A program made the translations under genes and the position numbers. A model generated the notes under the pieces. That model did no database searches. It was not told the origin of the DNA and worked only from the letters and a program-made list of their open reading frames with translations. From IMG/VR virus record IMGVR_UViG_3300009073_000002: a stretch of 64,000 nucleotides of DNA; one strand, given 5' to 3'. Below, piece by piece: positions 20,333 to 61,801 of the stretch (position 1 is its first letter; each line of letters starts with the position of its first letter). This stretch comes from a virus.

Positions 20333-21124
20333 ATGTGCCAGTATTTGCTTAAAAATCATCCTGATAATAACTATCAATTTTTATTTGCTAATACAGGTAA
20401 AGAAAAGAAAGAGACTTTAGATTTTGTACATAATTGTGATGTGGAAATGGGGCTTAATTTATCTTGGATAGAGTATGATCCCCAAGACGAATATGGAAAG
20501 AAAAACTGGTTTAAATTAGTTGACTATGAAACTGCTTCAAGAAATGGAGAGCCATTTGCTAAATTCATAAAGAAGGAAAGAATACCTAATTCGGCATACC
20601 CTAATTGTAGTGGTAGACTTAAATCTTTACCAATGCATAATTATATAAAATATCACCTTAAATGGGAAGATTATTATACATGTATAGGTATCAGATATGA
20701 TGAAAGGAAAAGGGTTAGAAATTGGGTTAAAGCTAATGAGAAAAAATACTTATATCCTTTAATAACTGATCATCGAATTGATGAAATGTTTGTAAGGAAT
20801 TATTGGGCCAAACAAGATTATGATTTGAACTTGAAAGATTATCAAGGTAATTGTGATTTTTGTTACAAAAAATCATTTAGAAAACTACTTACTTTAGCAA
20901 GTGAAGATCCAGATGGTTTAGATTGGTGGTCAGAAATGGAGGAAAAACACGGTGACGGATATACTTTCTTTAGGGATAATATTAGTGCAAATGAAATAAG
21001 AGAGTTATCTAAAAATAAGAGATTTGAAAAAGTTAAGGACTTACATCAACAAAGAAATATCAGTAATTATTTGTTCGATATGGATGCAGAAGCCACTTGT
21101 TTCTGTAACTTAGATGAATATTAA
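20333..21124 (+). CDS. PAPS-reductase/PP-loop ATP-pyrophosphatase family protein (true start unresolved, upstream of 20333)
   Basis: The PP-loop motif VSFSGGRTSAYM is encoded in frame at 20300..20335, before the first in-frame ATG. See the finding for 20151..20335. Confidence 0.7.
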   Translation: MCQYLLKNHPDNNYQFLFANTGKEKKETLDFVHNCDVEMGLNLSWIEYDPQDEYGKKNWFKLVDYETASRNGEPFAKFIKKERIPNSAYPNCSGRLKSLPMHNYIKYHLKWEDYYTCIGIRYDERKRVRNWVKANEKKYLYPLITDHRIDEMFVRNYWAKQDYDLNLKDYQGNCDFCYKKSFRKLLTLASEDPDGLDWWSEMEEKHGDGYTFFRDNISANEIRELSKNKRFEKVKDLHQQRNISNYLFDMDAEATCFCNLDEY

Positions 21125-25700: not shown

Positions 25701-28700
25701 ATGCCTCAGATAGAAGCGAGATTTGATCACATGTACACCGATGGTATTCCCCAAGAGTCACCATCAATGAAGTATAGAAACGCATACGGATGGTCTAAAT
25801 TGCAAGATGCAGTACGTACTGGATACATCTCAACAGAGACTGCAAATAACATCAAAGCAAGCCTACCGTCAGGCTCAGATATTAGAGGATGGTACTACAT
25901 AGAAGAAAGAGATTGGCACATATTTCTCAATCAAGTAGGTGGTACTGATGAAATAGGAGTCTACAAAGAATTAGAATGCAAGTACTATCGAGTTGTTAGA
26001 GATGGTGACCTAGATTGCCCATTAGAATTATCATCTTGTAGATGGTTCCAGATGGCAGTTAATGTCCATGGAAATTGCAATAGAATCAAAATCCATTATT
26101 CAGATAATAAGAATATGTATCGAGTGGTTGATATCACTGATCCATGTTGTGAGCTTAAAGAAGGCTCTCTGAACGATACAAAGCTACTGAAGTGCACTTG
26201 TATACCAACTTTAAAGAAAACAGTACTCAATGGCCATGGACGACTGCCAAATGGATCGTATAGAGCCGCGCTGATGTTGTTTGATGAAGATGGTAATGAT
26301 ACAAACTACTCTATCACTACTCATTCAATGGTTGTCAGTGATAATAGCCATAGAGTAGGTGAAGTAAGTGATTCAGCTATTTTGATAGAAGCATATGGAC
26401 TCCCAGAGGGATATACTTTCGGAAGATTAGTTATTGTCGAGGTAGTAAATGGAGCAGAGAGATATCGAGTGATAGATAGAATCGGTATCGGACAGGGGAG
26501 ATTAAAATTCACGTACACAGGAAACGAGGGGTACTATGAGGAAGGTATAGCTGAAGATATTCGATTAAGAAAGAGAAGATGGTTTAAGGGTGCAGGCATT
26601 CACAATCATAATGGAATTCCTATTTTCTATAACATTGAACCTGAGAGAAATTGGGATCTACAAAGATTAGTCAATACTTTCAAGGTTAGATACTATCGAT
26701 ATGCAGTTCCTGCTAATGAAGCTAAGTATTATGAAGGATTTAGACCAAATGAGATCCTTTCTTTTTCTATTAATTTCAATCTTAAAGGTGGTAGAAAAAC
26801 TAAAGCTTTTATTCTTTCAAATGACAATGTAGTAACTGGTGGTGAAGTTGTTACTACTTGTGATGGATGTAAGATTCCTTTCTGGTTTGCAAATGATACT
26901 TCTAAAAGAATAAATGGATACAGTACAGTAGAAGAAGCTATAGAGGCTCAAGAAAGAAAGAGTCAAGGAGTTAACCAAGATTTTAAAGTTAGTGCCTCTC
27001 CAACAATGAAAATCACTAAGACTGATGGGAAAGCATCATCTAGTGGATATGGTCCTACTATGAATTATTGTGAGTGTTTTGAATGCATTAATACGCTTCA
27101 GAAGTGCTACAAAGAGTTCATGCTTCAAATTATTATCTTCTTAAATTGTATTACTTCTGCTATTAATTTTGTTTTAGATTTTATATCAGGAGATGATGGC
27201 TCAGGTTGGAGCTGCCCAACATTGGCTTTGACTGATGCTACTGACGATTGCTCATGTGACAAAGTATCTAAATGTGCTAGTTTACGTGCTGAAGCAAATG
27301 CTAGAAGTACTGTTGATAGAATAGTTGACGAGACCTACCTTGACAATAATGAAGACATCATTGAGTTTAGAGAAGGCGAAAGAAACAATCCTGCTGCGTC
27401 TGGTGCTGATGAAAGTCAGTTTACTTACCTTAAATCTGAATGGAAATGTGGACCTGACTATAAAGATGGAGACTTCCTAGTCCACAATCAGATTACTTTT
27501 AAATGTATTGGTGGTTATTGGCATTACGTAAATGGTAGCCACATCTTCGAACCACATCCTGCCGTTAATTTTGACAATAAAAATATTCCTTTAGCTCTTA
27601 AAGAAAGAGCTCTTGGCCGTAATGGTAACTCCCATGTCGCAGGAGATGAAAACGATGAAGACTGTATCCCAATCAGAACAAAGCCTATTTACTTTAGTCA
27701 TGGTTGCTTTGGATATGCTGAATCAGAAGAATTGTATCCTGAAACGATCAGTCGATTAGATTGTGAGAAGATGTATGGAGATCTAGCAGGAAAGCCAGTT
27801 CGACACTTCAGAGTGCCATCTAGTACTAAAGAGGTTCATTTTGCTTCTACTGGATCAAATGTAGAAAGTCATCTAAACCCTGCAAATAATGTACTGGATA
27901 ATACATGGGTTATACTAACAGGTCTTAGTGTTGAAGGGATTGAAATTCCAGATGAATTACAACCTTACCTTTGTGAGAATCAACCATTTGATATCAATCA
28001 AGCGCCATTATTAGAAGCTGAAAAAACAGTACTTAATAGTGGAATACTTCATGGAACATTCGAAGGTCCAATATATGGAGAGACGCATTTACATCCTAAA
28101 CATGGAGTTAATAGTCCTGAGTTTTATGATCCTGCAATACAAAGGGCATTCAACAACTCATTCAGGCGAGGATCTGCAAGTACTGTTCCTGCATATATTT
28201 TGCAGTCACCTGATGTTATGCTCTATAGAAATAGAATGGATGCTCACTTCTGGATTACAGAATTGGAAGTTTATGGACAAGGAATCAGGTACGGACATTA
28301 TGCAAATGGATTAGAGCCAGAAAAATCAACTATTCCAAGATTTAATCAGGCAGGAGTAAGGCAAGGAGTCAATCTTAATAAGTCTACAACGGCAGCAATT
28401 GGCGAGACACCTATATTTAGATGTATCAAAGGAATGCAGTTTGTAGAAGCTGATGGTAGTGTTGGTACAACAGGTGAGTTTACATATAGATTTAACAATA
28501 AGTGGAGAGAGTCAGGAATGTATATTGAATTTGAAGGTGATAAAGATGGGTTTAGTGATCCTTTTGCCTTCGAATATGGAAGTACAAATGGAGGAGATGA
28601 TGAAAGTGATACAAGCTTCATTGGTGATGGGATTGATCATTTTGCTTTAATTCCAGATGCTAGAGCTTGGTATGGTTCATCATTGAGATTCTTACCAAGA

Positions 28701-31145
28701 CAATATGGTGCAGTGGCCAACAGAACTTATGTTCCGCTCGGTTTATCTGGTACTAAGTTAGATTATCATCAAAAAACAGGTATTGTAGTTCAAGGGATAG
28801 TTGGTTCTTCTAGTGTTGGTGATTATAGCTATAAGAGAACTTCTGTTTTGTCAGATAAAGTTCATGAAGAGATCAGTACTAATCCTTCATTTGGAATAGT
28901 TGCTAATTTCTTAGATAATCTAGGGATAGAGATACCAGACTTTATGAATCCTTTTATTGAAGCTTTAGATGCGTTCTTCAATAATCTACTTGGGAATATA
29001 GGATTTATAGATTGTGGTACCGTACCACACACAGGAGATGAAAATGATGTAAGGAATAGATTTAACCTAAGACCTGGAATGCGTGGTATTACGGATACTA
29101 CAGGCTATACTGTTACTGCTCCTGCTCAGGGCGAATGGGCTGATGTGTTCTTTCCTAGTGCTCTTTCTACATTCGTTAATATCTTCGTGCCATCAGATGC
29201 TAAGTTAGGATATCGAGGTACTGGAAGTATTCAACTTCGAGAATCAATAGAAGACCCTTCAAGTATAGCTGAAGTATTTTATCGTAAGCTTAAAACCCTA
29301 TTCCTTGACAGTAGCTTCCCTAATGGAGCGAATTGGAGACTATCTTGGATGAATCGATTCTTTAAGAAACTAATCGAACCACCTAGATGGAAAGTTTTAC
29401 TTAGAGTTCTTCTGAATATACTTTGGAAATTCGGCATAGGATTTTATTTAATAATTGAAGGTATTGATCATCTTAGTGAGAATTTAGCCAATACTGTATT
29501 AGGTCCTGGATCTACTTCAGTTACATCGGCTATTGGAATTGCAATAGGTGTATTCTTAATTTTACTCGGTCTTGCTTGGATTATTTTTTGGGCTGGTAAT
29601 GATCTAATGACCAAAGTGTTTGACAGACTCCTTCAGTTAGATGGTTGCTATCCAGATATTGAGAACGGTCAACACGTAACGGCTGCAGGTGGTAGTAAGT
29701 GGCAAATGAAGCTAGGAGAGCACCTCAGAGGACTCGAAGACAACTATTATTACTATAATATTGATTACAATGTAGTTAATTGGTTAGAAGTGATATTTGG
29801 CATACCTGTGAATTACGATACTGAATGGTGTCCAGAAGAATACAGTACTGATATCATTGCAGGACAGATGCAGAATCCAAAGAGTCATATTAATGCTTGG
29901 AGGAATGTAAGAACAGATGAAAATTTTAGTATTCCTAGAACTAGAGGCGCTATTACAAGAATGGTTACTCGAGGGGATAGATTATTTGCTCACACTACAG
30001 ATTCGTTGATTCAAATTAGAATTGATAAGAATGGTAGGTTTATTGATAACACTGATTTATTTGGAGGTGTAGAGACTGGTTATGCAGGGAACAAAGACCC
30101 GAATGCGTCCGCTAATTTGCCTGATGGTTATTGGTGGTGGGATAGAGATGCTAGAAGACCATACCGAATGTCTAATGGTATCCAAGAGCAACCATTCACA
30201 GGAATGGAGGATTACTTTGATTGTAACTGGGGGCTGAACATCTTGGAGCATTGGCCAGACTTCGACAAAGTTGATCAGAAATGTAAATCAGGAGTACACT
30301 ACGATATTGCATTCGATAAAAAGAATGACATACTCTACTTGTATAAGAAAGATTACAAGCTGAAAGAAGGTGTTCATAAAGATAACAATGGTAAGTGGGT
30401 TTATCAGAAACAGAATTGTGATATCAAGAATCTTGATTTCTGGGAAGAAGATAATTTGTTGATCTCATTTGACACTAAGAGAAATGAGCAGCAATACATA
30501 TCAAAGCATTGTTGGGATGCTGAGGTATTTATCTGGAATAGGTTTGATATGATGACAATTAAGAATGATAAGATTGCTAGTCATTGGACCAAAGGTAGAT
30601 TCAATAATTTCCATGGAACTCAGTATCATTCGTATATTGATGTAACAATACCGATTGCTTTAAAGAATAGATCTGTTTCTAAGATTAATTCTGTGAGAAT
30701 AGTTGGTGAATTGATTGAGCACTTACCAGGAGGAATCAAAAGAGAGCTTATCGATGAGAGATTGGTAGAGAGAATCATGCTTTACAATGGATATCAGTCT
30801 ACTGGATGGATGTCTGTGAGGTATAGTGATGAAGAAGACCAGTACAGTACATCAGCTGAGTCTAAGGATGGTGAGTGTGAGATTAAGGTAGAAAATAAGG
30901 TCAATGGATTTAAGATTACTAAAATCAAAAATGCAGTTCCTAAAGGAAGCCCAGTATTTGATCGATATAATCCTGAGATTAAGGATTATGATAACAACTA
31001 CAAGATTACAAGTGTTACAGAATCAGATACATTGACAGATGATTTTGTAGGTGTAAGGATGATTGTAAAGAAGGCTGCAAACAAGCAAGTCATACTTCGG
31101 GCTGCCATGGTTGACTATGATCCCTTAGAGACTGGAGTGGAATAA
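25701..31145 (+). CDS. giant (1814 aa) Cys-rich structural protein with internal TM helices
   Basis: An uninterrupted 5.4-kb ORF. Hydrophobic helices are encoded at about 29390..29600. Function is inferred from size only. Confidence 0.7.
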   Translation: MPQIEARFDHMYTDGIPQESPSMKYRNAYGWSKLQDAVRTGYISTETANNIKASLPSGSDIRGWYYIEERDWHIFLNQVGGTDEIGVYKELECKYYRVVRDGDLDCPLELSSCRWFQMAVNVHGNCNRIKIHYSDNKNMYRVVDITDPCCELKEGSLNDTKLLKCTCIPTLKKTVLNGHGRLPNGSYRAALMLFDEDGNDTNYSITTHSMVVSDNSHRVGEVSDSAILIEAYGLPEGYTFGRLVIVEVVNGAERYRVIDRIGIGQGRLKFTYTGNEGYYEEGIAEDIRLRKRRWFKGAGIHNHNGIPIFYNIEPERNWDLQRLVNTFKVRYYRYAVPANEAKYYEGFRPNEILSFSINFNLKGGRKTKAFILSNDNVVTGGEVVTTCDGCKIPFWFANDTSKRINGYSTVEEAIEAQERKSQGVNQDFKVSASPTMKITKTDGKASSSGYGPTMNYCECFECINTLQKCYKEFMLQIIIFLNCITSAINFVLDFISGDDGSGWSCPTLALTDATDDCSCDKVSKCASLRAEANARSTVDRIVDETYLDNNEDIIEFREGERNNPAASGADESQFTYLKSEWKCGPDYKDGDFLVHNQITFKCIGGYWHYVNGSHIFEPHPAVNFDNKNIPLALKERALGRNGNSHVAGDENDEDCIPIRTKPIYFSHGCFGYAESEELYPETISRLDCEKMYGDLAGKPVRHFRVPSSTKEVHFASTGSNVESHLNPANNVLDNTWVILTGLSVEGIEIPDELQPYLCENQPFDINQAPLLEAEKTVLNSGILHGTFEGPIYGETHLHPKHGVNSPEFYDPAIQRAFNNSFRRGSASTVPAYILQSPDVMLYRNRMDAHFWITELEVYGQGIRYGHYANGLEPEKSTIPRFNQAGVRQGVNLNKSTTAAIGETPIFRCIKGMQFVEADGSVGTTGEFTYRFNNKWRESGMYIEFEGDKDGFSDPFAFEYGSTNGGDDESDTSFIGDGIDHFALIPDARAWYGSSLRFLPRQYGAVANRTYVPLGLSGTKLDYHQKTGIVVQGIVGSSSVGDYSYKRTSVLSDKVHEEISTNPSFGIVANFLDNLGIEIPDFMNPFIEALDAFFNNLLGNIGFIDCGTVPHTGDENDVRNRFNLRPGMRGITDTTGYTVTAPAQGEWADVFFPSALSTFVNIFVPSDAKLGYRGTGSIQLRESIEDPSSIAEVFYRKLKTLFLDSSFPNGANWRLSWMNRFFKKLIEPPRWKVLLRVLLNILWKFGIGFYLIIEGIDHLSENLANTVLGPGSTSVTSAIGIAIGVFLILLGLAWIIFWAGNDLMTKVFDRLLQLDGCYPDIENGQHVTAAGGSKWQMKLGEHLRGLEDNYYYYNIDYNVVNWLEVIFGIPVNYDTEWCPEEYSTDIIAGQMQNPKSHINAWRNVRTDENFSIPRTRGAITRMVTRGDRLFAHTTDSLIQIRIDKNGRFIDNTDLFGGVETGYAGNKDPNASANLPDGYWWWDRDARRPYRMSNGIQEQPFTGMEDYFDCNWGLNILEHWPDFDKVDQKCKSGVHYDIAFDKKNDILYLYKKDYKLKEGVHKDNNGKWVYQKQNCDIKNLDFWEEDNLLISFDTKRNEQQYISKHCWDAEVFIWNRFDMMTIKNDKIASHWTKGRFNNFHGTQYHSYIDVTIPIALKNRSVSKINSVRIVGELIEHLPGGIKRELIDERLVERIMLYNGYQSTGWMSVRYSDEEDQYSTSAESKDGECEIKVENKVNGFKITKIKNAVPKGSPVFDRYNPEIKDYDNNYKITSVTESDTLTDDFVGVRMIVKKAANKQVILRAAMVDYDPLETGVE

Positions 31146-31664: not shown

Positions 31665-32081
31665 TTATGTATTAATTCCTTCTTCTATTATTGAAAAATG
31701 ATCAAATGCAAGATCTGGCAGGTCATTTACTTTAAACCATTTAACCTCTTTCGCATCATCTCCGGCCTTTATTGCAGTATTCTTAGGTATTTCTCCTATA
31801 AAGGGTACTGATATCACTTGCTCTCTTGGGTCTCTATTAGGATCACTTTTTATAGTAAGTTGTCTAAGCTTGAGATTATGGACACCCGTTTCTTCTTTTA
31901 ATTCTCTAAAAGCTGATTCAATAAGAGTCTCACGTACATCATGAAATCCGCCAGGCAGCGCCCATTTGTCTTTGAAGGGTTCATTCTTCCTCTTAATTAG
32001 CAATACGCGAAGAAAGTTAAGATCAAAAATTGCAAGATCTACAGCTATTGCTGCTCTTGGATGTTTGTAAGTGTAACTCAT
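31665..32081 (-). CDS. Nudix hydrolase
   Basis: Nudix box GGFHDVRETLIESAFRELKEETGV. Confidence 0.85.
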   Translation of the reverse strand: MSYTYKHPRAAIAVDLAIFDLNFLRVLLIKRKNEPFKDKWALPGGFHDVRETLIESAFRELKEETGVHNLKLRQLTIKSDPNRDPREQVISVPFIGEIPKNTAIKAGDDAKEVKWFKVNDLPDLAFDHFSIIEEGINT

Positions 32082-35300: not shown

Positions 35301-36080
35301 CTAAACTTCTTCAACAAAGTATCTATGTACCAGTTGGTCTATCTCTCTTGCTCCAATAGAGCTTTCTTCGTAAACTTCTGCTAACTTCTCTTTTACCCAC
35401 TTTCTAACTGTCTTAGATTCAATACTGTAAAGTTCACAATACTGATCAAGTGTAGGTGAAACATCTACAATTTGATTTAATTCATCGAGTTTAAGCTTCT
35501 TCAATGTAAAGACAATAGGAACTCTACCAATAAATTCTGTTTTGACTCCAAGGCCTGCAAGTCTAGTTCTTGTAATTCCCTCTTCTCCATTAAATGCTCC
35601 TGCAAATACGAATAAACACTTGCTAATATTGATTTTAGCAAACTTACCGTAGTCGGCCATGATTGAAACTTCAGAACCTTCTAAAGCATTCAAAAACTCA
35701 TTCTGAACACCGGTAGTAGTTTCATGTGCTAATTCAGAATTTGAATTTCCTGCAATCAATAGTTTGTCGAACTCATCAACAAATATTACTGTAAGCTTAT
35801 TCTGAAAATTCTTGAGCTCTCCAAAAGCTTTAGAGAGTGAATTACCAGAAGTACCTTCTTTGGTTAATCCTGCACCATCTATTGATACAAAATTAATTCC
35901 CATTCGATTTGCTAACTCCTTAATGATAGAGGTCTTACCAGACCCACTTGGACCAATTGTAAATGAATGTGGCTTGATCTTACCATTAGACTCAGAGAAT
36001 ATCTCTAAGATTTTAGTGAACCCTTGGACAAATTTCTCCTGACCAATGATTTTCATTTTTTGAACTTCTACTTTCGACAT
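35301..36080 (-). CDS. AAA+ ATPase (ClpX/HslU-like nucleotide-binding module)
   Basis: Walker A GPSGSGKTS; Walker B VIFVDEFDKL. Confidence 0.8.
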   Translation of the reverse strand: MSKVEVQKMKIIGQEKFVQGFTKILEIFSESNGKIKPHSFTIGPSGSGKTSIIKELANRMGINFVSIDGAGLTKEGTSGNSLSKAFGELKNFQNKLTVIFVDEFDKLLIAGNSNSELAHETTTGVQNEFLNALEGSEVSIMADYGKFAKINISKCLFVFAGAFNGEEGITRTRLAGLGVKTEFIGRVPIVFTLKKLKLDELNQIVDVSPTLDQYCELYSIESKTVRKWVKEKLAEVYEESSIGAREIDQLVHRYFVEEV

Positions 36081-37315: not shown

Positions 37316-37784
37316 CTTCTTCTTCGTATTGATTACTCCAATTTTTTTTGTATTTTTCTATTAATTCAATGTCCTCTTTTGTTACGAAATTCTCACCTCT
37401 TTCTAGTTTAGGTATTTGCAATAAAAACTCCATTAATATCTTGCCTTCAACCATTACTTTAATTATACCTGAAGACAATGGATATCCCTTATAGATAATT
37501 GGATTAATTAAAGAATCATTGTCAAGTTCTAGATTGTGTTTAAGCTTAAATGGAAATTCAGCAAAAAAGAAATCCAAACTATCCGCAGGAAAAGACATCG
37601 TTTTAAATACGAATGCAAATTCTTTTTCCCTCATAAATCTTTGGATATTCCTTATTCCAATTGATCCACAAATAAGTGAAGTCTCTACTTTTCGTCTTGA
37701 CTGTTTCACAAGATTTAATATCTCACTGAAAACAGTATTCATATCATCAGGATTGTACCTTCTAATTATTGTTTGGGTTTGCAT
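37299..37784 (-). CDS. hypothetical protein
   Basis: 161-aa ORF. Confidence 0.6.
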   Translation of the reverse strand: MQTQTIIRRYNPDDMNTVFSEILNLVKQSRRKVETSLICGSIGIRNIQRFMREKEFAFVFKTMSFPADSLDFFFAEFPFKLKHNLELDNDSLINPIIYKGYPLSSGIIKVMVEGKILMEFLLQIPKLERGENFVTKEDIELIEKYKKNWSNQYEEEDDSQG

Positions 37785-37939
37785 AATTCTATTTTTATAA
37801 AGTCAATAAGACTGTTAGATATTTTGTTTACACTACATTCCTGGTGTTCATGTATGTCCGTGTAAGGATTCCAGATATTCATTTGTTTTCTACAGATCCT
37901 ACACTTAGGTGGTTCTGTGTATTTGAATCGAATATTCAT
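37766..37939 (-). CDS. small zinc-ribbon-like protein (57 aa)
   Basis: Read manually: MNIRFKYTEPPKCRICRKQM...HEHQEC. ATGA overlap with the upstream gene. It fills a gap that would otherwise be empty. Confidence 0.45.
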   Translation of the reverse strand: MNIRFKYTEPPKCRICRKQMNIWNPYTDIHEHQECSVNKISNSLIDFIKIELCKPKQ

Positions 37940-38133
37940 GTTATATCTTTTTTGGATACAACAACAATTCTAGCTTCAGTGGTGTCTATATCAGCTGAAT
38001 TACATAAATTGCATTCTAAGCTAATATCTTTACTTTCTACTGTTAATCCCTTGGTAGTCGAAAGATATCTAGATATTGCATCTCTTATTTCGCTCTCATT
38101 GAGCCTGTATTCATTTGTTTGAATATGTTTCAT
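37936..38133 (-). CDS. hypothetical protein
   Basis: 65-aa ORF with a 4-nt overlap upstream. Confidence 0.5.
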   Translation of the reverse strand: MKHIQTNEYRLNESEIRDAISRYLSTTKGLTVESKDISLECNLCNSADIDTTEARIVVVSKKDIT

Positions 38134-38504
38134 AGGCCTTCTCTTTTAATTATCAATCCTCTACTGTCTGAAACTCTTAAATACTTAGAAGCATCTAATC
38201 CTTTTCTTCTGTAGAGTTTAATTGTGTTGACTAGATGTCCGTTAGTCATCTCATTAATTAGCATATACTCTCCATTTCTTCTATTGTGGAGATACTGTTC
38301 GTTCCTTTGTCTTTGGTATTTAAGAATAATCTTCAGAAAGTAATTACCTCCTTCTAGTATCCATACAGATCCTATAACTCTTATGATTATAGGCTTTACG
38401 GTCTCGGGCGAGACAACAAGGTGGATGCCTGCTGCGATAGCAAAAAAGCAGTAGATGACTAGCTTTAAGTATGACTTGTTGAATTTTGATATTAGTTTTT
38501 TCAT
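38130..38504 (-). CDS. membrane protein
   Basis: Two TM helices at the N-terminus. Confidence 0.55.
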   Translation of the reverse strand: MKKLISKFNKSYLKLVIYCFFAIAAGIHLVVSPETVKPIIIRVIGSVWILEGGNYFLKIILKYQRQRNEQYLHNRRNGEYMLINEMTNGHLVNTIKLYRRKGLDASKYLRVSDSRGLIIKREGL

Positions 38505-38737
38505 TGCTCTAATGTATATGTATTTGTGATTGTAATAGGAATCAATACAGCATCCTTTAATTGTTCGAATTGGAAACTAGGTGCCATGTCTGTAGCTTTC
38601 TTACAAAACTCAGGATCAGAAACTTTAGCATTTTTCAGTGGACCAAAATCATAGTGTTTAGACCGACCATCATCATACTGTAATCCCCAGTACTTACCAT
38701 CTTTCATGGCTACTACACCTTTCTTAATTGTATTCAT
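38501..38737 (-). CDS. hypothetical protein
   Basis: 78-aa ORF. Confidence 0.55.
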   Translation of the reverse strand: MNTIKKGVVAMKDGKYWGLQYDDGRSKHYDFGPLKNAKVSDPEFCKKATDMAPSFQFEQLKDAVLIPITITNTYTLEQ

Positions 38738-38765
38738 GGTTTATTAGTTGTTTAGTTAAAAAAAA

Positions 38766-38915
38766 TAGAGAGCCAACAGTGTGGATGTAATTTGTGGGTT
38801 TCCAGAGCCATACAGGAGCTTATTCAAAGGCAGTTGTGCCTGCGGTAGTCCAGTCCTGACGTGTACACCTCACCTGCGTCGAATTCAGCTTCCTGCTCGC
38901 TTCCTCAAGGCTCTC
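38766..38915 (-). ncRNA. GC-rich structured intergenic RNA / attenuator candidate
   Basis: GAGAGCC (38915..38909) pairs with GGCTCTC (38774..38768), followed by TA and T8. Contains the palindrome GTGTACAC and direct repeats AGGAAGC. Confidence 0.35.
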
Positions 38916-38918
38916 ATA

Positions 38919-39491
38919 TTATCTTAATCCTATTCTGTTTTCGACCACATCAATTAATAGTATTATCTGATGATTAACAAATAGAACTGCTGCCAATACA
39001 TATAAAAAAGGATCAGCTATAAAGCTATTATCAACTGCTCCTAATCTACAAATAAAACATACAAAAGCAAATATTAAAGATATTGCAAAGTATTCATCAA
39101 ACTTTTTTGCTACGTGTCTTATATTCAAAAGAGCTGTACGAATGAAAGGTAATTTCTCAGGAGCAACTGGGCTACTCTTAATTTCTTTAGACTCATCATA
39201 GAAAGAGCTGTCTGCTACGCCTCTTATCTGTACATTATAACATCTAGATATTCCATCTACAAGTTCATCAAATAGAAATTGGTTGTTATTTTCTATCCCA
39301 TATATCTTAGCTGATGTATCCTTGAAGAAATCTCTATAAGTGTATGGTTTGGGTATTTTCAATCCTATTTCTAGAGCCTGCATCTTAATTCTATCTGGGT
39401 CGCGGCATACAATTGGGATTTGCCCTTTCCATGAGAGAATTATTAATGATCTTGTCTTTCCTGATCTTGGTTTACCTATGAATGCTTTCAT
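38919..39491 (-). CDS. mini P-loop NTPase with C-terminal TM helices
   Basis: Walker A GKPRSGKT; Walker B-like FLFDEL. Hydrophobic C-terminus. Paralog of 61144..61590. Confidence 0.6.
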   Translation of the reverse strand: MKAFIGKPRSGKTRSLIILSWKGQIPIVCRDPDRIKMQALEIGLKIPKPYTYRDFFKDTSAKIYGIENNNQFLFDELVDGISRCYNVQIRGVADSSFYDESKEIKSSPVAPEKLPFIRTALLNIRHVAKKFDEYFAISLIFAFVCFICRLGAVDNSFIADPFLYVLAAVLFVNHQIILLIDVVENRIGLR

Positions 39492-41014
39492 TATTTTGTA
39501 TTTATTAAATAGATGCTATCGTGATTAACTAAAAGGATTCCTCCTGTGCTAAAATGCAAACTACTATGTGAGTTACATTTAGGGCACTCTATCTCTGAAA
39601 CTACTTGCATATCTTTGATTCTGTAAACTATTATTTTACCGTCTGCAGGCTCAAATACAAAATCTTTGTTCATACATGATGATTTAAATTCATCAATTTC
39701 TAACTTTTTCTTTCCACCTCCTTTAAGTTCGAAGTAGGCATATTTTATTTCGGTTCCTTCTTTGTATTTGAATACAGCCATTGATCCAAACGTCTTTGCG
39801 TCAAGTATTCTAAATCCATATTCAAAAGATGCTAGATTATCATTTACATTAGAAAACACAAAAGAAGTCTTAGATGTATTAAAAATCATACCTGATCCAA
39901 ATGTCAATGCTTTCCTAAAGATATCCCTAGATCTCCTATATAGTATTCTATTGCCGGATTTATTTAAGGTGTAAATGTTCATTTTGTCACCTATAACTTC
40001 TATAAGGTTCGATCCAGTTTTGTGTTGAAATATAGCTAAAGGCATTTCTTTATTTGTGAATATTTTCTTATCAGAAAAATATCTCCCCTTACCAATTTCT
40101 TCAACCCAACGAACTCCTTTTATTTCAAAAACATTGCCATTAACTTGAAATCTATTCCCGTTAAAATGAAAGTCTATAATGTCACCTGTATAAACTAATT
40201 TTTCATGTATTTTATCAGATGATAGATCAATCTTAACAACTGGGGCCATTACAACCTTAGATAATGAAGGAAAAACTCTTAATCCTTCTTCCATTATTTT
40301 AAAGTAAATATCTTTTTGGTGACCGGTAAATTCTCTGTATGATTTGTGTATTTTAAGACCTGCATTTTTTCTCATTACAGAGAATTTATCAATCATTCTG
40401 TTTTTCAGTTTATCAGCACCTTTATAATTAGGATGCTGACCCTTATATGGGTGAGTATGAGTCATTGCTTCAAACATAATAATTGACAATGCAAACCAAT
40501 CTGATTCTTTCGATACTTTAGCGTTGTAATACCAATCAGTGATTTCGGGCTGCAAAACTTGGTTATGTCTGCCTCCTGGTGTTTGATATGAGGCTGTATC
40601 AATGAATCTTATCTCTTTTCCGTTAGTAAGTATGTTCTCAGGATTTAAGTCGCCTATAACGAATCCTATGTTGTGAGCTTCTTGAACTAACGAACTTACT
40701 TTCTCGAGCAGTATTACTTTCTGTTTATCTGATATTTTCTTTTTAGTGCAGAAAGATTGGTATTTAAGTCCAGAAATAGGATAGTAGCTTTGATCTACAT
40801 AATCCATTGTATGACCAATTATAACTCCTGATTTGTCAATCGTATCAAGTGGCTTAATGAATTCAGAAGGTAGTTTCCTAAAATCATTGATAGTTGTTTT
40901 TAGATGAGCACATCTTTTAGGGTCGTGATATATCTTAGCTACTAAGCTAGGATTGTTTGCTACTTCATAGATTGTTCCTTCCCCACCTCCGTTGATTTCT
41001 TTGCCTAATTGCAT
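39491..41014 (-). CDS. Ser/Thr protein kinase with about 250-aa uncharacterised C-terminal domain
   Basis: G-loop GGGEGTIYEV, VAKIY, catalytic loop IGDLNPENIL, FIDTASY. Confidence 0.75.
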   Translation of the reverse strand: MQLGKEINGGGEGTIYEVANNPSLVAKIYHDPKRCAHLKTTINDFRKLPSEFIKPLDTIDKSGVIIGHTMDYVDQSYYPISGLKYQSFCTKKKISDKQKVILLEKVSSLVQEAHNIGFVIGDLNPENILTNGKEIRFIDTASYQTPGGRHNQVLQPEITDWYYNAKVSKESDWFALSIIMFEAMTHTHPYKGQHPNYKGADKLKNRMIDKFSVMRKNAGLKIHKSYREFTGHQKDIYFKIMEEGLRVFPSLSKVVMAPVVKIDLSSDKIHEKLVYTGDIIDFHFNGNRFQVNGNVFEIKGVRWVEEIGKGRYFSDKKIFTNKEMPLAIFQHKTGSNLIEVIGDKMNIYTLNKSGNRILYRRSRDIFRKALTFGSGMIFNTSKTSFVFSNVNDNLASFEYGFRILDAKTFGSMAVFKYKEGTEIKYAYFELKGGGKKKLEIDEFKSSCMNKDFVFEPADGKIIVYRIKDMQVVSEIECPKCNSHSSLHFSTGGILLVNHDSIYLINTK

Positions 41015-41712
41015 TGGTAAATTATTAATGAAATATCGTCTTGATTAATTATCTTTTCGTAACCTGGGAATATTCCCTTGCTCAGCATTTTCAACTTGCG
41101 ACTAAGGCAGGTTTTGTTTTCATTCCTCCATCTGTCATTGATAAACAATTCAGATAGATTAAATTTCTCGGTATTACTTCTAAATGATTCTAGTCCATCC
41201 GTACTTAAAGCAACTTGATCTGTATACGCGAATAAATCAATGGTTAGAGATTCTTTAAAATCATTCCAGTCCTGATATTGAGAAATATACTTAGGTTGAT
41301 TGTTTTGATCAATTGATACTATATTGTGATCGATAGCATATATCCCATCTCCTGAGAAGACTACTATAGCATTCTTTGTATATTTATCTATTACGCATAT
41401 TCCAATTGTTGCTTCCAATTCATTTTTCTCTAGAGATAAATTTTTTCTGTATATTCTTAGATCTTCAAATAACTCTCTCATTATATAAAGAGCTTCTTCC
41501 TTTGGCTGTTTTAAAAAGATACCCATGTTCTTTTTGTCAATGAGTATCTTTTTGAACATCTTTTTGAATAGACCTGATGCGAATGCGCTGTCAAGTCCTC
41601 CGCTGCACCCATCTGAGACGAATAAATAAAGATAGCGTTCCGTATCAGATACGTACTGGCTATCTTCATTCGTCTTATGAGTGGAACCTATTTTACTGAG
41701 TTCCTTAATCAT
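41005..41712 (-). CDS. PP2C-family Ser/Thr phosphatase
   Basis: HKTNEDS, FVSDGCSGG, FSGDGIY, LSTDGL. Confidence 0.7.
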   Translation of the reverse strand: MIKELSKIGSTHKTNEDSQYVSDTERYLYLFVSDGCSGGLDSAFASGLFKKMFKKILIDKKNMGIFLKQPKEEALYIMRELFEDLRIYRKNLSLEKNELEATIGICVIDKYTKNAIVVFSGDGIYAIDHNIVSIDQNNQPKYISQYQDWNDFKESLTIDLFAYTDQVALSTDGLESFRSNTEKFNLSELFINDRWRNENKTCLSRKLKMLSKGIFPGYEKIINQDDISLIIYQCN

Positions 41713-42401
41713 TAGAATGTAACATTTGCGATGTTCGCGGTACTTCCAGACGATACTGACTGAGAAGCAACTGTAATCATTCCTCTGATCTTCTTTCCGA
41801 TTGGAGTTGGATCACTTGGGTCATCTACAGCCACTTTAGTGATTCCCATCTGTTGTGCTGCACCTTTGAAGTAAGATGGGTCATTAAGACCAAATAATAC
41901 TAAGTCAAAGTTTCCGAAATTCTCTTCATTTGAGTAAATCTCATCTAGCTTCTTTTTTACATCAGAAGGATTTTTAGATGAACTATTGTCATCTCCATCA
42001 GTGAAGACGAAAATCATTACTTTACAATCAGCACCAGAGCTTACGATACTTTCGTAGTAGCTTCTACTGTTTTCAAGAGCTGTGTAAACTCCATCATACA
42101 ATGCAGTCATTCCTCTTGGACTTACATCAATATGATCTACTGAAGCAATTGGAGTGAATCCATGAACTACTTCTACTGAAGAATCAAAATCAACTCTTGA
42201 ATACATTATTTTGTCTGAATGATGAGATCCTTTCCACTCTTTAAGAGTTTCAGACATTGCATCATTCATATCATTGACATAATTAGAGATAGAACCACTT
42301 CTATCTATGACGAATGTTACTAACATTACATCATCTACCTGAATGTCATCAGGGTTAAAATTAGGCTTCCCAAAGGATACGCCAAAATCTAAACTTTCCA
42401 T
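41712..42401 (-). CDS. von Willebrand factor A (TerY-like) protein
   Basis: MIDAS motif DRSGS, TALYDG, FTDGDDN. Confidence 0.8.
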   Translation of the reverse strand: MESLDFGVSFGKPNFNPDDIQVDDVMLVTFVIDRSGSISNYVNDMNDAMSETLKEWKGSHHSDKIMYSRVDFDSSVEVVHGFTPIASVDHIDVSPRGMTALYDGVYTALENSRSYYESIVSSGADCKVMIFVFTDGDDNSSSKNPSDVKKKLDEIYSNEENFGNFDLVLFGLNDPSYFKGAAQQMGITKVAVDDPSDPTPIGKKIRGMITVASQSVSSGSTANIANVTF

Positions 42402-42429
42402 TCTTTTTGGATTTTAGTTGTGATAAAAA

Positions 42430-43227
42430 TTATTTCAAAAATTGAGCTGTTGCTGTTGTACAAAGAACAACTCCTTTGCTTTCAGCTTCAGCAAAAATAG
42501 AGTCAGCCATACCTTCGAATCCTGCAACGTCACTCATAGCATCAGTAACCACATTCAACTTAGGTAATAAGTCTGGACAGTAATTAAGCATTTGCTTCAA
42601 TGTGTTTCCAACACAGTGACTTTTAGCTTGACCCATTAAAAATACTTTAGAGTACTTATTCAGCTTTGCATATAGTCCGTGATTGAACTCTGTTGACTCT
42701 TGACCAGGATAAGGTACATTTGCTCTTAATGCTCCAAAGTGTTCACTCAATGGGAATTCTCCTTTTTGCACTATTTCGTACAGAGACATTGTTTTTTCTT
42801 GCCAGTTAAGAACAGCATTCATAAGCTCAGGAACTATAGCTGCTCCCGACGAACCAATGATGCAGTGCTTTGGCCAGATACAATGCTTATACTCTCCATT
42901 CTTTTCAAGTTCTTCAATGTATGAAATTGATTCCCTTACATATAGTTGTGGAGTCCAAATTCCGTCTTTAATGTCTTGACTAGAAATCAAAGTGAATGGA
43001 GGTGGATTGCTTCCATCTTTGCCTTTCCACCATACTGGATGAGCGATGTGTAGAGATTGGTGACTGTCTTGTGTTAACGAGATGTAGTCAATGTGATCTG
43101 CATTGTCCTCTATTAGCTTAACAGTCCTCTGTGTGTCTTCCTCAGCTCCTTGGACAAACAAGGCTCCTTTAGGGTCACAGAAATCGACTTGACCATCGAT
43201 AATTAAAATAGCATTTCTTTTGTTCAT
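42430..43227 (-). CDS. isochorismatase-family hydrolase, nicotinamidase (PncA)-like
   Basis: ILIIDGQVDFCDPKGALFV and the catalytic-Cys context GQAKSHCV. Confidence 0.7.
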   Translation of the reverse strand: MNKRNAILIIDGQVDFCDPKGALFVQGAEEDTQRTVKLIEDNADHIDYISLTQDSHQSLHIAHPVWWKGKDGSNPPPFTLISSQDIKDGIWTPQLYVRESISYIEELEKNGEYKHCIWPKHCIIGSSGAAIVPELMNAVLNWQEKTMSLYEIVQKGEFPLSEHFGALRANVPYPGQESTEFNHGLYAKLNKYSKVFLMGQAKSHCVGNTLKQMLNYCPDLLPKLNVVTDAMSDVAGFEGMADSIFAEAESKGVVLCTTATAQFLK

Positions 43228-43261
43228 TACGTGTAGATTTAAAAGTGAAAAATTATTGTTG

Positions 43262-44761
43262 TTAAATATTATGCAAGTTAGCTTTCCCCATACTGTTAGA
43301 GATTGCAGTGATTAATTGAGGTGGAATACTGTTTCCGATCCCCTTAGTTTGCTGTGCTTTAGTGCCAGTTAAAATGTAATCCTCTCCAAATCCCTGACAC
43401 ATAGCCAATTCCCTAGGATTTAGCCATCTCATTTTTACATCTAGCAAGTATGTACCGTCACCAATATAGCAAGATATCAGAGTATTATGATCTTTGGTTG
43501 TAATGGTGTGCAATGGCTTATCCAGACTGCTCGCGTGATTACCTCCAAAATGCTTAGAGATGAACTGAAGTAACTCTACTGATACCTCTTTCTCAAATGG
43601 TCCTCTTACGATATCACAAGTCACAAGATTAGACTTTGTATTCGTTGTAATCGTTCCTAACGGCTTATCTATCGATGAGACGTTGTACTCCCCAGAAAAG
43701 TATTTATCTATGAACTGTAGCTTCTCAACAGTCACCAGAGCCTTCTCATCCTTGGTTACAATAGTCTTTAGCGGCTCGTCAATGCTTCCGTAGTTGCTCG
43801 CCCCATGATAATGTTGGGTGTAGAAGGTTTCTGTAGTAATCAATGCGTGTCTATCCTTAGTTGTAATCGTATGTAGTGGATCATCAATTGAAGATACATT
43901 TTGCTCTGATCTATAAGACTTGGCTATGAAGGGTACACCCGGACCATATTTTTTGATTCCGTATGCGATTCTCTTTAGCGTGTTTTCCACTAATGGATTA
44001 GGGTCGCCATTTTTTCGAGTACGTCCAAAGATTGAATTACCATGATTATTTAGATCGATACATTCCCTACATGGAATCCAAGGCTCAAGACCAAACATAC
44101 CAGGCTTTTCAGTATGTGTTGGCTCTGGCCATTCAATCTCCCAACCTTCTTTAGTAAACAATAAGAATAATCTTTTCCTAGAAGTTGGAGCACCATAGTC
44201 AGCTGCATTGAGAACTCTCTTGCTGTAATTCTTAAAACCGTAATCATACTGCATTTTGTAGCACCACTTATGAAAGTATTGACCTTTCTTTTTAGGGTCA
44301 GGAATCATTACTGGCTTCCCTTGATTCTTACCTCGAGTAATTTTAATTATTTTGCCATCTGAATCTCTCTTAGGAATAAGAGGACCCCAATCTAAAAACT
44401 CAACTACATTTTCAATGATTACGATGTTAGCTCCTGTGTACTTGATGTATCTAAAAATCTCATTAGCCATTGCTCGACTGTCAGGATCTCGCGATGAACC
44501 TCCTTTGGCTTTAGAATGATTCGTACATTCAATCCCTGCAGCTAGTACATCGGCTTTCTTAATTACAGCTTCATTGGACTTGTAGAGGTCTGCTATTACA
44601 AATTCTACATCTTTATGATTTCTGGAATTAGTCTCTATTGCATGTTGGTCATGATTAAGACCTTGGATTACTGTAAAGTAATCGCTGCGATGCATCCCTT
44701 CTGTCATGCCGCCTGATCCGCAAAGTAAGTCTACTGCTTCGAATTGTTGATTTGATTTCAT
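43262..44761 (-). CDS. DNA (cytosine-5) methyltransferase with four tandem repeat modules
   Basis: Motif I DLLCGSGG, IV-like GIECT, VI ENVVEF, QGF, X GIGNSIPP. Four repeats of SxDxPLxTIxTxxxxxL. Confidence 0.85.
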   Translation of the reverse strand: MKSNQQFEAVDLLCGSGGMTEGMHRSDYFTVIQGLNHDQHAIETNSRNHKDVEFVIADLYKSNEAVIKKADVLAAGIECTNHSKAKGGSSRDPDSRAMANEIFRYIKYTGANIVIIENVVEFLDWGPLIPKRDSDGKIIKITRGKNQGKPVMIPDPKKKGQYFHKWCYKMQYDYGFKNYSKRVLNAADYGAPTSRKRLFLLFTKEGWEIEWPEPTHTEKPGMFGLEPWIPCRECIDLNNHGNSIFGRTRKNGDPNPLVENTLKRIAYGIKKYGPGVPFIAKSYRSEQNVSSIDDPLHTITTKDRHALITTETFYTQHYHGASNYGSIDEPLKTIVTKDEKALVTVEKLQFIDKYFSGEYNVSSIDKPLGTITTNTKSNLVTCDIVRGPFEKEVSVELLQFISKHFGGNHASSLDKPLHTITTKDHNTLISCYIGDGTYLLDVKMRWLNPRELAMCQGFGEDYILTGTKAQQTKGIGNSIPPQLITAISNSMGKANLHNI

Positions 44762-44784
44762 TGATCTGATTTTAAATGGTATTG

Positions 44785-44792
44785 CAAATATA
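44785..44792 (-). promoter_or_regulatory. -7 box TATATTTG (minus strand) upstream of the methyltransferase
   Basis: Followed by CAATACCATTTAAAATCAGATCAATG. Confidence 0.45.
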
Positions 44793-44854
44793 CGTAAATA
44801 AATTATTTATTTTACAAATGACATGGATAAGTTGTGAGTCCACCCTGCTGTTAG

Positions 44855-45052
44855 TTAATTATAATTTAAAGTGATATCAATCCCATTAATGGTTTTTACT
44901 TTGGTTAGTGTGTTGATATGTACAAACTGAACTATATCATGTAGTCCAACAGTAAATATCATTCTAGTGCATCCGTCTGGATCATTGTAGATGAACAATT
45001 CTGCATCTTCAAGTCGATCTCGGTTTTTGGTTTGTAGTTTTCTTCTTTTCAT
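44855..45052 (-). CDS. hypothetical protein
   Basis: 65-aa ORF. Confidence 0.5.
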   Translation of the reverse strand: MKRRKLQTKNRDRLEDAELFIYNDPDGCTRMIFTVGLHDIVQFVHINTLTKVKTINGIDITLNYN

Positions 45053-45071
45053 GATTTTGGAATTTGGTTAT

Positions 45072-45359
45072 CTATAAATTTAATTTATTAGCTAGGTACT
45101 TTCTATCTAATCCGTATTTGAATATACGTCTGGTTATTGGTCCATTTATTCTGCATTCCTTTAAGGTTTCGTCGTAATCTAATCTTAACCATGCAAAAAT
45201 ATCTTGATGTAAATAAATATCATCTATACATTCTCCGTCGATATCAATACTCAAATACCAAATCATTTCGTCACCATAGATACTAGGCTCTCCGTACTTC
45301 CAATCGTAGTCAACTGAGATTGTTACTTTGTAAAATAAAAATGCTATAATTCTTTTCAT
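45072..45359 (-). CDS. hypothetical protein
   Basis: The ATG at 45359 forms an ATGA overlap with the upstream stop. The track start is 45380. Confidence 0.5.
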   Translation of the reverse strand: MKRIIAFLFYKVTISVDYDWKYGEPSIYGDEMIWYLSIDIDGECIDDIYLHQDIFAWLRLDYDETLKECRINGPITRRIFKYGLDRKYLANKLNL

Positions 45360-45670
45360 GATTGTTTTCTTCTTTCGCATTGTTCGTTACACATTGGCTT
45401 TTCTTTAAATTGTTCCTTGGTCATTGAGATTACATCAGCATCCATTTCTGCAGCTCCTACCATAAATTCTTTTTTGTCTTCGGCATCCATCATCTCCCAG
45501 GCCGCGGCAGCAACCCATCCTTTGCATGAGGGACACACGGTTATCTTAACCTCTCTCTGTTCGTTATCAGCTTTAGACTTTTCTTTGTCTGCCTTCATTT
45601 TTGCTTTAATGTGATCAGGTAATGCATCTTGACCTGCTTTGTCGAATGTAAGTGATTTTGTGTTTTCCAT
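45356..45670 (-). CDS. hypothetical protein (CxxC-containing)
   Basis: 104-aa ORF. Confidence 0.55.
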   Translation of the reverse strand: MENTKSLTFDKAGQDALPDHIKAKMKADKEKSKADNEQREVKITVCPSCKGWVAAAAWEMMDAEDKKEFMVGAAEMDADVISMTKEQFKEKPMCNEQCERRKQS

Positions 45671-59544: not shown

Positions 59545-59617
59545 AGGGATGTAGCTTAGTGGCCAGAGCGCGTATTTTGGGAATACGAAGGCGAGTGTTC
59601 AAATCACTCCATCCCTA
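59545..59617 (+). tRNA. tRNA-Pro (UGG); CCA encoded at 59618..59620
   Basis: Manual cloverleaf: acceptor AGGGATG/CATCCCT, anticodon loop TTTGGGA, T-arm GAGTG-TTCAAAT-CACTC. Confidence 0.85.
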
Positions 59618-59625
59618 CCAATTAT

Positions 59626-59699
59626 GGTAGCCTTGTGCTGTTTTGCAATGCAGCCGGACTGTGGATCTGGTGCGACGGGTTGGATTCCCGAGGTTTACC
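59626..59699 (+). tRNA. tRNA-His (GUG) with encoded G-1; atypical D and T loops
   Basis: Anticodon arm CCGGA-CTGTGGA-TCTGG. G-1 lies opposite C73. One acceptor mismatch. The D loop lacks GG and the T loop is TTGGATT. Confidence 0.55.
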
Positions 59700-59706
59700 C
59701 AATAAT

Positions 59707-59779
59707 AGCCATGTAGCTCAACTGGCAGAGCGCTTCCCTACGAAGGAAGGGGTTGGGAGTTCGACTCTCTCCATGGTTA
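59707..59779 (+). tRNA. tRNA-Arg (ACG)
   Basis: Acceptor AGCCATG/CATGGTT, anticodon loop CTACGAA, T-arm GGGAG-TTCGACT-CTCTC. Confidence 0.85.
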
Positions 59780-59823
59780 CTAAAATTTTAAAAATCGACG
59801 GCGCTTCGCGCCTAGATACACAT

Positions 59824-59903
59824 GGTCAGGTAGCCACCCTCCTCTTCTAAAGGAGTAAGTGTAATTGGAGCTGAAAATCGGGGTTCGAATCCCTGTCTGA
59901 TCA
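59824..59903 (+). tRNA. atypical tRNA-like gene, anticodon-like loop UCU (Arg)
   Basis: 7-bp acceptor GGTCAGG/TCTGATC and T-arm CGGGG-TTCGAAT-CCCTG. The hairpin CTCCT-CTTCTAA-AGGAG starts only 8 nt after the acceptor strand and is followed by 23 nt. Confidence 0.4.
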
Positions 59904-59928
59904 CTATTAAATAATAAATTTATTATTG

Positions 59929-59936
59929 TATATTTG
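59929..59936 (+). promoter_or_regulatory. -7 box TATATTTG
   Basis: 17 nt upstream of the ATG at 59954. Confidence 0.45.
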
Positions 59937-59953
59937 TAAAAAATATATTAATT

Positions 59954-60220
59954 ATGACAGCATCGGAATTGTTAAATAAAGTACTGACTAAAGTATTTGC
60001 ACTTCAATCTTTATCTGGTAAAATCAGGATAAAGACTGAAGAAAATAAAATGCAAGAACTAAATCTGTTTATTGTCTACTCTAATCATCCTGTTCAGTAT
60101 AACAATAAAATAAGTATTCTGAATTCTGATGATCATGATCTTGAAGAAATTTGGGAACAATTCAAAGAAGATGTTGATACCAATATAAGAGCAATTGATC
60201 ATATCGTTAATATGCCTTAA
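59954..60220 (+). CDS. hypothetical protein
   Basis: 88-aa ORF between tRNA genes. Confidence 0.55.
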   Translation: MTASELLNKVLTKVFALQSLSGKIRIKTEENKMQELNLFIVYSNHPVQYNNKISILNSDDHDLEEIWEQFKEDVDTNIRAIDHIVNMP

Positions 60221-60229
60221 ATTACACAA

Positions 60230-60302: not shown

Positions 60303-60317
60303 CTAAATTACTGTTTT

Positions 60318-61771: not shown

Positions 61772-61801
61772 AAATCAAATATACAAAAAATTTTTATTTA
61801 G

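Follow-up and report, generated by a model that had tools for sequence, protein, structure and literature searches.

The viral DNA analysed in this study (IMG/VR virus record IMGVR_UViG_3300009073_000002; 64,000 nucleotides, the whole of which is referred to as the window) encodes on its minus strand a conserved four-gene module, Nic-vWA-PP2C-kinase (39491–43227), in which a putative PncA-type nicotinamidase (Nic) is combined with a vWA protein, a PP2C-family phosphatase and a Hanks-type Ser/Thr kinase. The module may be a phosphorylation-gated nicotinamide-salvage unit that sustains or restores NAD+ during infection, a reading to which a probability of about 0.5 is assigned. Counter-defence against NAD+-depleting immunity would plausibly be its role, and the specific wiring of the switch is proposed with much lower confidence than the overall reading.

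The first gene of the module encodes Nic (42430–43227; 265 aa), and is followed on the same strand by genes for a TerY-like vWA protein (41712–42401; 229 aa; Pfam VWA, phrog_7371) with a complete metal ion-dependent adhesion site (MIDAS), a PP2C-family Ser/Thr phosphatase (41005–41712; 235 aa; Pfam PP2C_2) and a 507-aa kinase (39491–41014). The kinase open reading frame (ORF) comprises a Hanks-type Ser/Thr kinase domain (residues 1 to ~250; 40265–41014) and a C-terminal domain (residues 262–507; 39494–40231), which is assigned to the beta-propellers below from AlphaFold2 and Foldseek. The vWA and PP2C genes, like the kinase gene and a 190-aa ORF behind it, share one base in the string TAATG (at 41712 and 39491, respectively), while PP2C and kinase overlap by 10 nt (ATGCAATTAG) at 41005–41014. 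A preliminary description of this DNA, made from the letters alone, had listed these four minus-strand ORFs from vWA to the 190-aa protein together with their junctions, and all of them are present. Its domain calls were upheld by profile comparison, though weakly: the vWA protein scores 25.3 bits with VWA (Pfam cutoff 23.8) and its supposedly intact MIDAS consists of residues that are conserved in the family, PP2C scores 29.9 bits with PP2C_2 (cutoff 24), and the kinase reaches 30.8 bits with Pkinase, slightly below the cutoff of 31.7, with its fold confirmed by AlphaFold2 and Foldseek. The weakness of these scores is due to the divergence of the proteins. A promoter and terminator scan of 37500–45500 gave counts at or under the shuffled expectation and is therefore uninformative on the boundaries of the operon.

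Nic, which had been mentioned in the preliminary description as a mere neighbour of the other genes, is instead the most conserved and a near-invariably linked fourth member of the module. It aligns with yeast Pnc1 (2h0r) over every hallmark motif, and all 127 family members examined carry both the predicted catalytic triad D11/K155/C205, as aligned to Pnc1, and the nicotinamidase-specific metal ligands D54/H56/H121, which match the DxH and WPxHC motifs of Pnc1. In related loci its identity to the corresponding proteins is 40–68% by tblastn, compared with 26–58% for vWA, 29–46% for PP2C and 27–45% for the kinase.

The linkage of the four genes was recovered from several starting points. When the contexts of full-length kinase homologs and of three huge-phage genomes matching the kinase were collected, all seven independent loci showed the order Nic-vWA-PP2C-kinase, an isochorismatase-like gene of ~266 aa preceding vWA, PP2C and kinase in every one of them, and in a collection of 50,697 phage records Nic and kinase match the identical four records. 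A search with a Nic alignment gave 253 matches in IMG/VR and at least 230 in GTDB species representatives, of which the best 80 viral and the best 80 cellular loci, that is, the top-ranked matches to an alignment built from triad-linked Nic, were inspected with family hidden Markov models (HMMs). All three triad members lie no more than 7 kb from Nic in 61 of these 80 best viral loci and in 52 of the 63 non-redundant viral lineages (Nic clustered at 90% identity), and in most viral loci with two of the three, PP2C lies where the fetched flank ends. Conversely, loci found via the beta-propeller kinase contain Nic within 9 kb in 14 of 16 viral cases. The neighbourhoods of related loci thus bear out the expectation that vWA, PP2C and kinase are co-conserved. 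Contigs exceed 200 kb in 22 and 100 kb in 38 of the 80 viral loci, many module-bearing phage contigs being 100–500 kb in length. These surveys required family alignments because IMG/VR scans with a single kinase or vWA sequence yielded nothing useful; a megablast search of 38000–45000 against the 50,697 phage records likewise found no match. A word-indexed search with ~10 full-length matches had suggested that the kinase family is very rare, which the alignment-based surveys identify as an artefact of sensitivity.

In the surveyed loci all four genes are co-directional. Nic-vWA forms one block and PP2C-kinase another, and where a block is interrupted, as in some loci, the intervening ORFs are short. 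The two blocks are circularly permuted (PP2C-kinase-Nic-vWA) in some loci and parted by inserted genes in others. The adjacency of Nic and vWA is kept through these permutations in almost every locus, a few having short ORFs between the two genes, and in most related loci PP2C is found next to the kinase, short ORFs intervening in some. Particular arrangements were also recorded. Locus L125, from an Armatimonadales metagenome-assembled genome (MAG), has the vWA and PP2C matches in one 693-aa ORF (7333–9414), a possible fusion; in L133 the full module is carried by a contig, probably viral, that was binned to a Promethearchaeota (Asgard) MAG; and in L027 two copies of Nic flank the triad.

The checked catalytic and metal-binding residues are invariant or nearly so in the 68–127 sequences of each family, and the module enzymes therefore look active as judged from their alignments. 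The vWA residues D33, S37, T99 and D135 of the MIDAS (motif D33-R-S35-G-S37) are invariant in 71 of 71 sequences, with Ser at position 35 in 67 and Thr in the other four; D17, D34 and G35 of PP2C are likewise invariant (71/71), with D172, G173 and D225 kept in 70 of 71; and G10, G11, D122, N127 and D139 of the kinase are invariant in 68 of 68, K27 being Lys in all but one. An AlphaFold2 model of the kinase from a 10-sequence family alignment (pLDDT, the predicted local distance difference test, 75.8) matches CaMKII, PknB and other canonical Hanks kinases in Foldseek with E of ~1e-8. The C-terminal domain modelled alone (residues 262–507; pLDDT 80.5, predicted template modelling score, pTM, 0.79) has ~24 beta-strands, and its top 50 matches in the PDB are without exception beta-propellers, including BamB, the WD40 domain of PAN2, Vps18, DDB1-BPB and WIPI. 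The existence of this domain had been recognised in the preliminary description, where it was left unassigned; on the predicted structure it is a beta-propeller. Its best match among viral predicted structures is a full-length, unstudied kinase of ‘Myoviridae sp.’ (E 1.7e-33), and the family HMM finds the propeller domain in 49 of the 61 viral loci with the full triad.

The vWA protein ends in a Ser-rich tail (~residues 205–229, ...TVASQSVSSGSTANIANVTF; 41715–41789 on the minus strand). The motif [IVLM]SxS[IVLA][ST] occurs within the last 40 aa of 68 of 71 family members and of four of 1544 control ORFs, the consensus across the module being [IV]S[SK]S[IV]S[ST]xS...x[TN]F-COOH with a terminal Phe in 60 of 71 proteins, and the fraction of Ser and Thr is 0.30 in the tail versus 0.15 in the body of the protein. 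This Ser cluster is a candidate phospho-acceptor or docking element.

Neighbour families were defined by clustering all ORFs around the surveyed loci, and the only other recurrent ones were PncB (nicotinate phosphoribosyltransferase, NAPRTase), glutamine-dependent NadE, NadM-Nudix, NUDIX, Tpt1/KptA, NADAR and the ADP-ribosylglycohydrolase ARH. At least one NAD+/ADP-ribose gene lies within 7 kb in 25 of the 80 viral loci, and PncB is found in 11 viral loci and in 21 genome loci, all of the latter without the triad. Some of these genes are inside the module, as the interval from vWA to PP2C holds PncB and NadE in L034, L035 and L046 and PncB alone in L047, and ARH separates PP2C from the kinase in L031 and L184. 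Others are just upstream, namely NadE with a cytidylyltransferase-like gene in L012 (1–1241) and Tpt1/KptA with DnaJ in L015 (141–701 and 1877–2962). In isolate genomes (Dyadobacter, Spirosoma and many Burkholderiales) the same Nic subfamily is accompanied by PncB, NadE, NadM-Nudix and NUDIX and in no case by the triad. All full modules of the genome collection are carried by MAG contigs, several of which are clearly chromosomal. NrtR is a Nudix-related transcriptional regulator of NAD-metabolism genes, and a bona fide NrtR, containing both Nudix and the NrtR winged helix, is located immediately upstream of the four genes, either co-directional with them or divergent, in several MAGs (Bacteroidales, Pyrinomonadaceae, Agitococcus and Rhodoferax), where the modules stand beside AcrB or TamB. 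The recurrent context, which the preliminary description missed, is NAD+/ADP-ribose metabolism and not tellurite-resistance or defence islands. The window itself encodes a NUDIX hydrolase (31665–32081, minus strand; 138 aa; Pfam NUDIX 2e-19) ~10 kb from the module, which matches the NUDIX family accompanying Nic elsewhere (E = 7.6e-41) and may, as this family match suggests, be functionally associated with the module in ADP-ribose/NAD metabolism. HMM and Pfam sweeps for PncB, NadE, NadM, Tpt1, NADAR, ARH and other NAD genes, the Pfam sweeps covering 89 of the 94 non-overlapping window ORFs with 70 aa or more, found NUDIX only, and none of the 89 belongs to the NAPRTase/Nampt-like, PRPP-synthetase-like, cytidylyltransferase-like or PnuC families.

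The triad had been compared earlier with the TerY-P triad, which was described by Anantharaman, Iyer and Aravind in 2012 as cited in PMC11090510. This comparison stands for the three families and their descent, and fails for the kinase fusion and the genomic context. Shared are the three co-directional families in one operon, a complete MIDAS, PP2C_2 and the C-terminal signature F[IV]S-x-S of vWA. The nearest outgroup kinases (weak matches P0011 and P0014) belong to classical vWA-PP2C-kinase triads without Nic, which adjoin Zn-ribbon and Sel1 genes, in L017 also an integrase, and the vWAs of classical triads carry the related tail motif F[VI]S[SE]S[LM]; a triad of the classical type also occurs in one viral locus (L197). 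As judged from the tail signature and the outgroup kinases, the module triad probably descends from TerY-P-type triads. It differs from them in its kinase, which is fused to a predicted beta-propeller instead of the OB-fold of the defence type (Gao et al. 2020) or the Zn-ribbon of the CoCoNuT type, as these types are summarised in PMC11090510, in a near-obligate nicotinamidase as the fourth gene, in a context of NAD+/ADP-ribose genes and NrtR in place of ter genes, restriction systems and CoCoNuTs, and in its predominant occurrence in large phages. The preliminary description had further held that the mechanism of TerY-P is not experimentally established; the mechanism is indeed still open, but anti-phage activity has been demonstrated, with protection against T7-like phages (Gao et al. 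2020, as reported in PMC11090510 and PMC7699616). No TerY model of PADLOC was matched by window proteins, nor by classical triads used as positive control, and PADLOC is therefore uninformative for TerY-P. The E. coli operon yegL-pphC(yegK)-yegI likewise encodes a vWA protein, a PP2C-like phosphatase and a eukaryotic-like Ser/Thr kinase, the last two of which are biochemically active partners, while its substrates and the role of vWA are not established (10.1101/819920; 10.1101/303594). It differs from the module in that YegI crosses the membrane twice and has no propeller, and the operon has neither a nicotinamidase nor an NAD context.

Nicotinamidase converts nicotinamide to nicotinate, which is the entry step of the Preiss-Handler route completed by PncB, NadD and NadE, and nicotinamide is the product released by NADase defence effectors and ADP-ribosyltransferases. 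In integrin I-domains the C-terminal end of the domain controls the state of the MIDAS, and beta-propellers are typical interaction domains. From the observed anatomy, active-site conservation, co-conservation and NAD context, we infer a scheme for the enzyme activity, the phosphorylation partners, the signal and the advantage for the phage. Nic would deamidate nicotinamide to nicotinate and feed the Preiss-Handler route, the later steps of which would be supplied by the host in the present case and are encoded in or next to the module in some related phages. The MIDAS of vWA would bind a partner, either Nic or another client, with Nic as the prime candidate because the Nic and vWA genes are almost always adjacent. 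The kinase, presumably cytosolic, would sense a signal via its beta-propeller and phosphorylate the Ser-cluster tail at the C-terminal end of the vWA domain, and PP2C would reset the switch. The net effect would be a signal-gated recycling of nicotinamide that keeps up or restores NAD+ in infection.

Several observations weigh against this scheme. As PncB, NadD and NadE are absent from the 64-kb window, the phage would need host enzymes or genes located elsewhere in its ~132-kb genome. With its four steps the Preiss-Handler route consumes ATP and PRPP and is slow relative to a lytic cycle, and the removal of nicotinamide could relieve product inhibition of host SIR2-type NADases and so harm the phage. 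Nic remains under curated cutoffs (Pfam Isochorismatase 13.2 versus 27; NCBIfam PRK11609 44.4 versus 174) and carries an insert of ~57 aa, and is therefore regarded as a putative divergent PncA-type subfamily and not as an equivalog. Residues separating triad-linked from stand-alone Nic were sought and none was found; hence the sequences bear no trace of any specialised interface between Nic and vWA. The linkage frequency may be inflated, since top-ranked loci were sampled from the 253 viral and at least 230 cellular matches, although the results of the kinase-first survey and of the phage collection are independent of the Nic-alignment ranking. TerY-P is itself a defence system, so a defensive role is conceivable for the module as well. 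Finally, the case for each member of the module is built from sequence, models and context.

Such a defensive role would make the module a phage-borne TerY-P-like system of defence or superinfection exclusion, in which the triad senses a competing phage and Nic is an effector or accessory that, for example, destroys nicotinamide so that rivals equipped with NARP1 or NARP2 (NAD+ reconstitution pathways) cannot rebuild NAD+. Both pathways do need nicotinamide (10.1101/2024.02.11.579819), stand-alone anti-phage activity has been validated for TerY-P triads (Gao et al. 2020, as relayed in PMC11090510 and PMC7699616), to which the module triad is evolutionarily related, and defence-like genes are common in large phages. 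However, the recurrent neighbours PncB, NadE and NadM rebuild NAD+ and do not deplete it, cellular copies are under NrtR beside housekeeping genes and not in defence islands, the kinase has neither the OB-fold nor the Zn-ribbon of defence-type TerY-P, and no match to defence HMMs was obtained beyond generic kinase similarity, PADLOC being uninformative for TerY-P. This explanation is considered quite unlikely. A different possibility, rated as unlikely, is that the triad is a kinase/phosphatase system of host takeover directed at host proteins and that Nic is an auxiliary metabolic gene, co-expressed with the triad but coupled to it neither physically nor by regulation. The phosphorylation of host proteins by a phage Ser/Thr kinase has a precedent in gp0.7 of T7, and the lack of discriminating residues in triad-linked Nic and the insertion of other genes between the Nic-vWA and PP2C-kinase pairs are consistent with such independence. 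It is difficult to reconcile with the near-obligate two-way linkage across very divergent lineages (25–45% identity), with the survival of the Nic-vWA adjacency through permutations, and with the presence of the same four-gene unit under NrtR in bacteria, where takeover is meaningless.

By analogy with MoxR-vWA systems, vWA could instead be a metal-insertion or activase chaperone of Nic as a metalloenzyme, with kinase and PP2C merely tuning a maturation device that is not a signalling switch. Proteins with vWA and MIDAS act as cochaperones for metalloenzymes, the D-H-H metal site of Nic is invariant, Nic-vWA is the tightest gene pairing in the module, and the MoxR-vWA systems noted in PMC7824862 provide a precedent for a cochaperone role. 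No MoxR-type AAA+ protein is conserved in the module, however, and the same Nic subfamily occurs without vWA in many isolate genomes; this explanation is considered very unlikely. For the reading as a gated salvage unit, the closest functional analogues, as proposed here, are the three phage NAD+ reconstitution pathways reported since 2024, NARP1 (Adps and Namat), NARP2 (NadV and NMNAT; 10.1101/2024.02.11.579819) and NARP3 (PnuC and a NadR-like protein; PMC13464706), in which phage enzymes act on NAD+ breakdown products or precursors and rebuild NAD+ under NAD+-depleting immunity. None of these pathways includes a nicotinamidase or a signalling layer, as described in the same two sources. The module would differ from them in its entry by deamidation to nicotinate and the Preiss-Handler route, and in its dedicated kinase/phosphatase/vWA layer, which has no counterpart there; no NARP enzyme was found in the swept window ORFs. 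Bacterial NrtR salvage operons (pncA-pncB, nadE, nadM-Nudix) share the Nic subfamily and the partner genes, with NrtR upstream of the module itself in several MAGs, but contain no vWA, PP2C or kinase, and the phage copies of the module are without NrtR.

A full-text search of the open-access literature for nicotinamidase, vWA, PP2C and kinase together returned no description, and within the literature searched the Nic-vWA-PP2C-propeller-kinase module is undescribed. The preprint on NARP1 and NARP2 (10.1101/2024.02.11.579819) and the paper on NARP3 (PMC13464706) do not mention PncA, nicotinamidase or Preiss-Handler; two large surveys from the Aravind laboratory, one of them devoted to viral NAD+/ADP-ribose systems and the other to jumbo phages, are silent on PncA, isochorismatase, PP2C and TerY; and the phage G paper lists a PncA-like gene with no function assigned.

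The gene directly downstream of the kinase encodes a mini P-loop protein (38919–39491, minus strand; 190 aa), where the P-loop and two C-terminal hydrophobic segments noted earlier agree with the Walker motifs and with hydropathy. It contains a Walker A motif (GKPRSGKT) and a Walker-B-like hhhhDE motif, and its N-terminal ~90 residues fall into a family (phrog_1828) of ~100-aa proteins that share conserved Walker A (GxxxxGKT) and Walker B (hhhhD[ED]) motifs, while the hydrophobic segments (residues 135–153 and 162–184) are unique to this copy. The ORF has no Pfam match and no relatives in ~180–190 related loci or in the collection of 50,697 phage records, and phmmer, run exhaustively against 1.84 billion representatives, recovered nothing beyond weak N-terminal matches to ~100-aa proteins. 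The gene after the kinase varies by lineage (190, 568, 220, 104 or 201 aa). Membership of the 190-aa ORF in the module was rejected in view of the lack of homologs in related loci, and the four-gene unit drawn earlier, which ended with this protein, is not co-conserved; the ORF is a lineage-specific accessory, whose translation is coupled to that of the kinase in this phage alone. Behind it lies an intergenic region of 180 nt (38738–38918) with a T-run at its end, which has no Rfam or tRNA match and a folding z of −1.3, not significantly under shuffles. On the other side of the module, a C5 cytosine DNA methyltransferase (43262–44761, minus strand; 499 aa) has its Pfam match split in two by a large insert, and is not conserved beside the module in related phage loci.

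The attribution of this DNA to a phage, as made at the outset, is supported by its phage-type genes, its tRNAs and the kin of its helicase. The window contains helicase, primase, sliding clamp and GroEL PHROGs in long co-directional gene blocks, the nearest relatives of the helicase are in Bacteroidota phages of 145–151 kb, and the identical kinase is found on metagenomic contigs of up to 132 kb. Arrays of tRNA genes are typical of large phages, and 13 tRNA genes lie on both strands of 59545–63984 (Pro, Arg, Gln, Lys, Cys, Trp, Phe, Asp, Thr, Val, Gly, Asn and Ala). A TnpB/IS605 OrfB-like protein (18179–19351, minus strand; 390 aa) with HTH_OrfB_IS605, OrfB_IS605 and Cas12f1-like TNB domains is encoded antisense within a plus-strand phage gene block, and is either a mobile-element insertion or a domesticated RNA-guided nuclease. 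The window also encodes a GroEL-type chaperonin (11859–13460, plus strand; phrog_5725), a PAPS-reductase-like protein (20333–21124, plus strand; phrog_424), a ClpX/HslU-like AAA+ ATPase without a protease partner (35301–36080, minus strand; phrog_5534), and two giant ORFs on the plus strand with no Pfam or PHROG match (95–3910, 1271 aa; 25701–31145, 1814 aa).

The depletion of NAD+ is among the commonest anti-phage strategies of bacteria. It is a tentative and rather doubtful extension of the salvage reading that the module represents a fourth kind of phage NAD+ counter-defence, in which an entry enzyme of the Preiss-Handler route is switched by a kinase/PP2C/vWA sensor of NAD+ cleavage or of the attacking effector. 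If true, this would be the first phosphorylation-gated anti-defence pathway, and for the first time a TerY-P-type triad would have a known enzymatic client, which would make the mechanism of TerY-P directly testable. TerY-P-type triads, which are present even in E. coli K-12, thereby gain a candidate client in Nic and a candidate phospho-acceptor in the vWA tail. The module occurs in dozens of divergent lineages of large phages and in NrtR-controlled bacterial operons, and this breadth suggests an unexplored, regulated branch of the conflict over NAD+.

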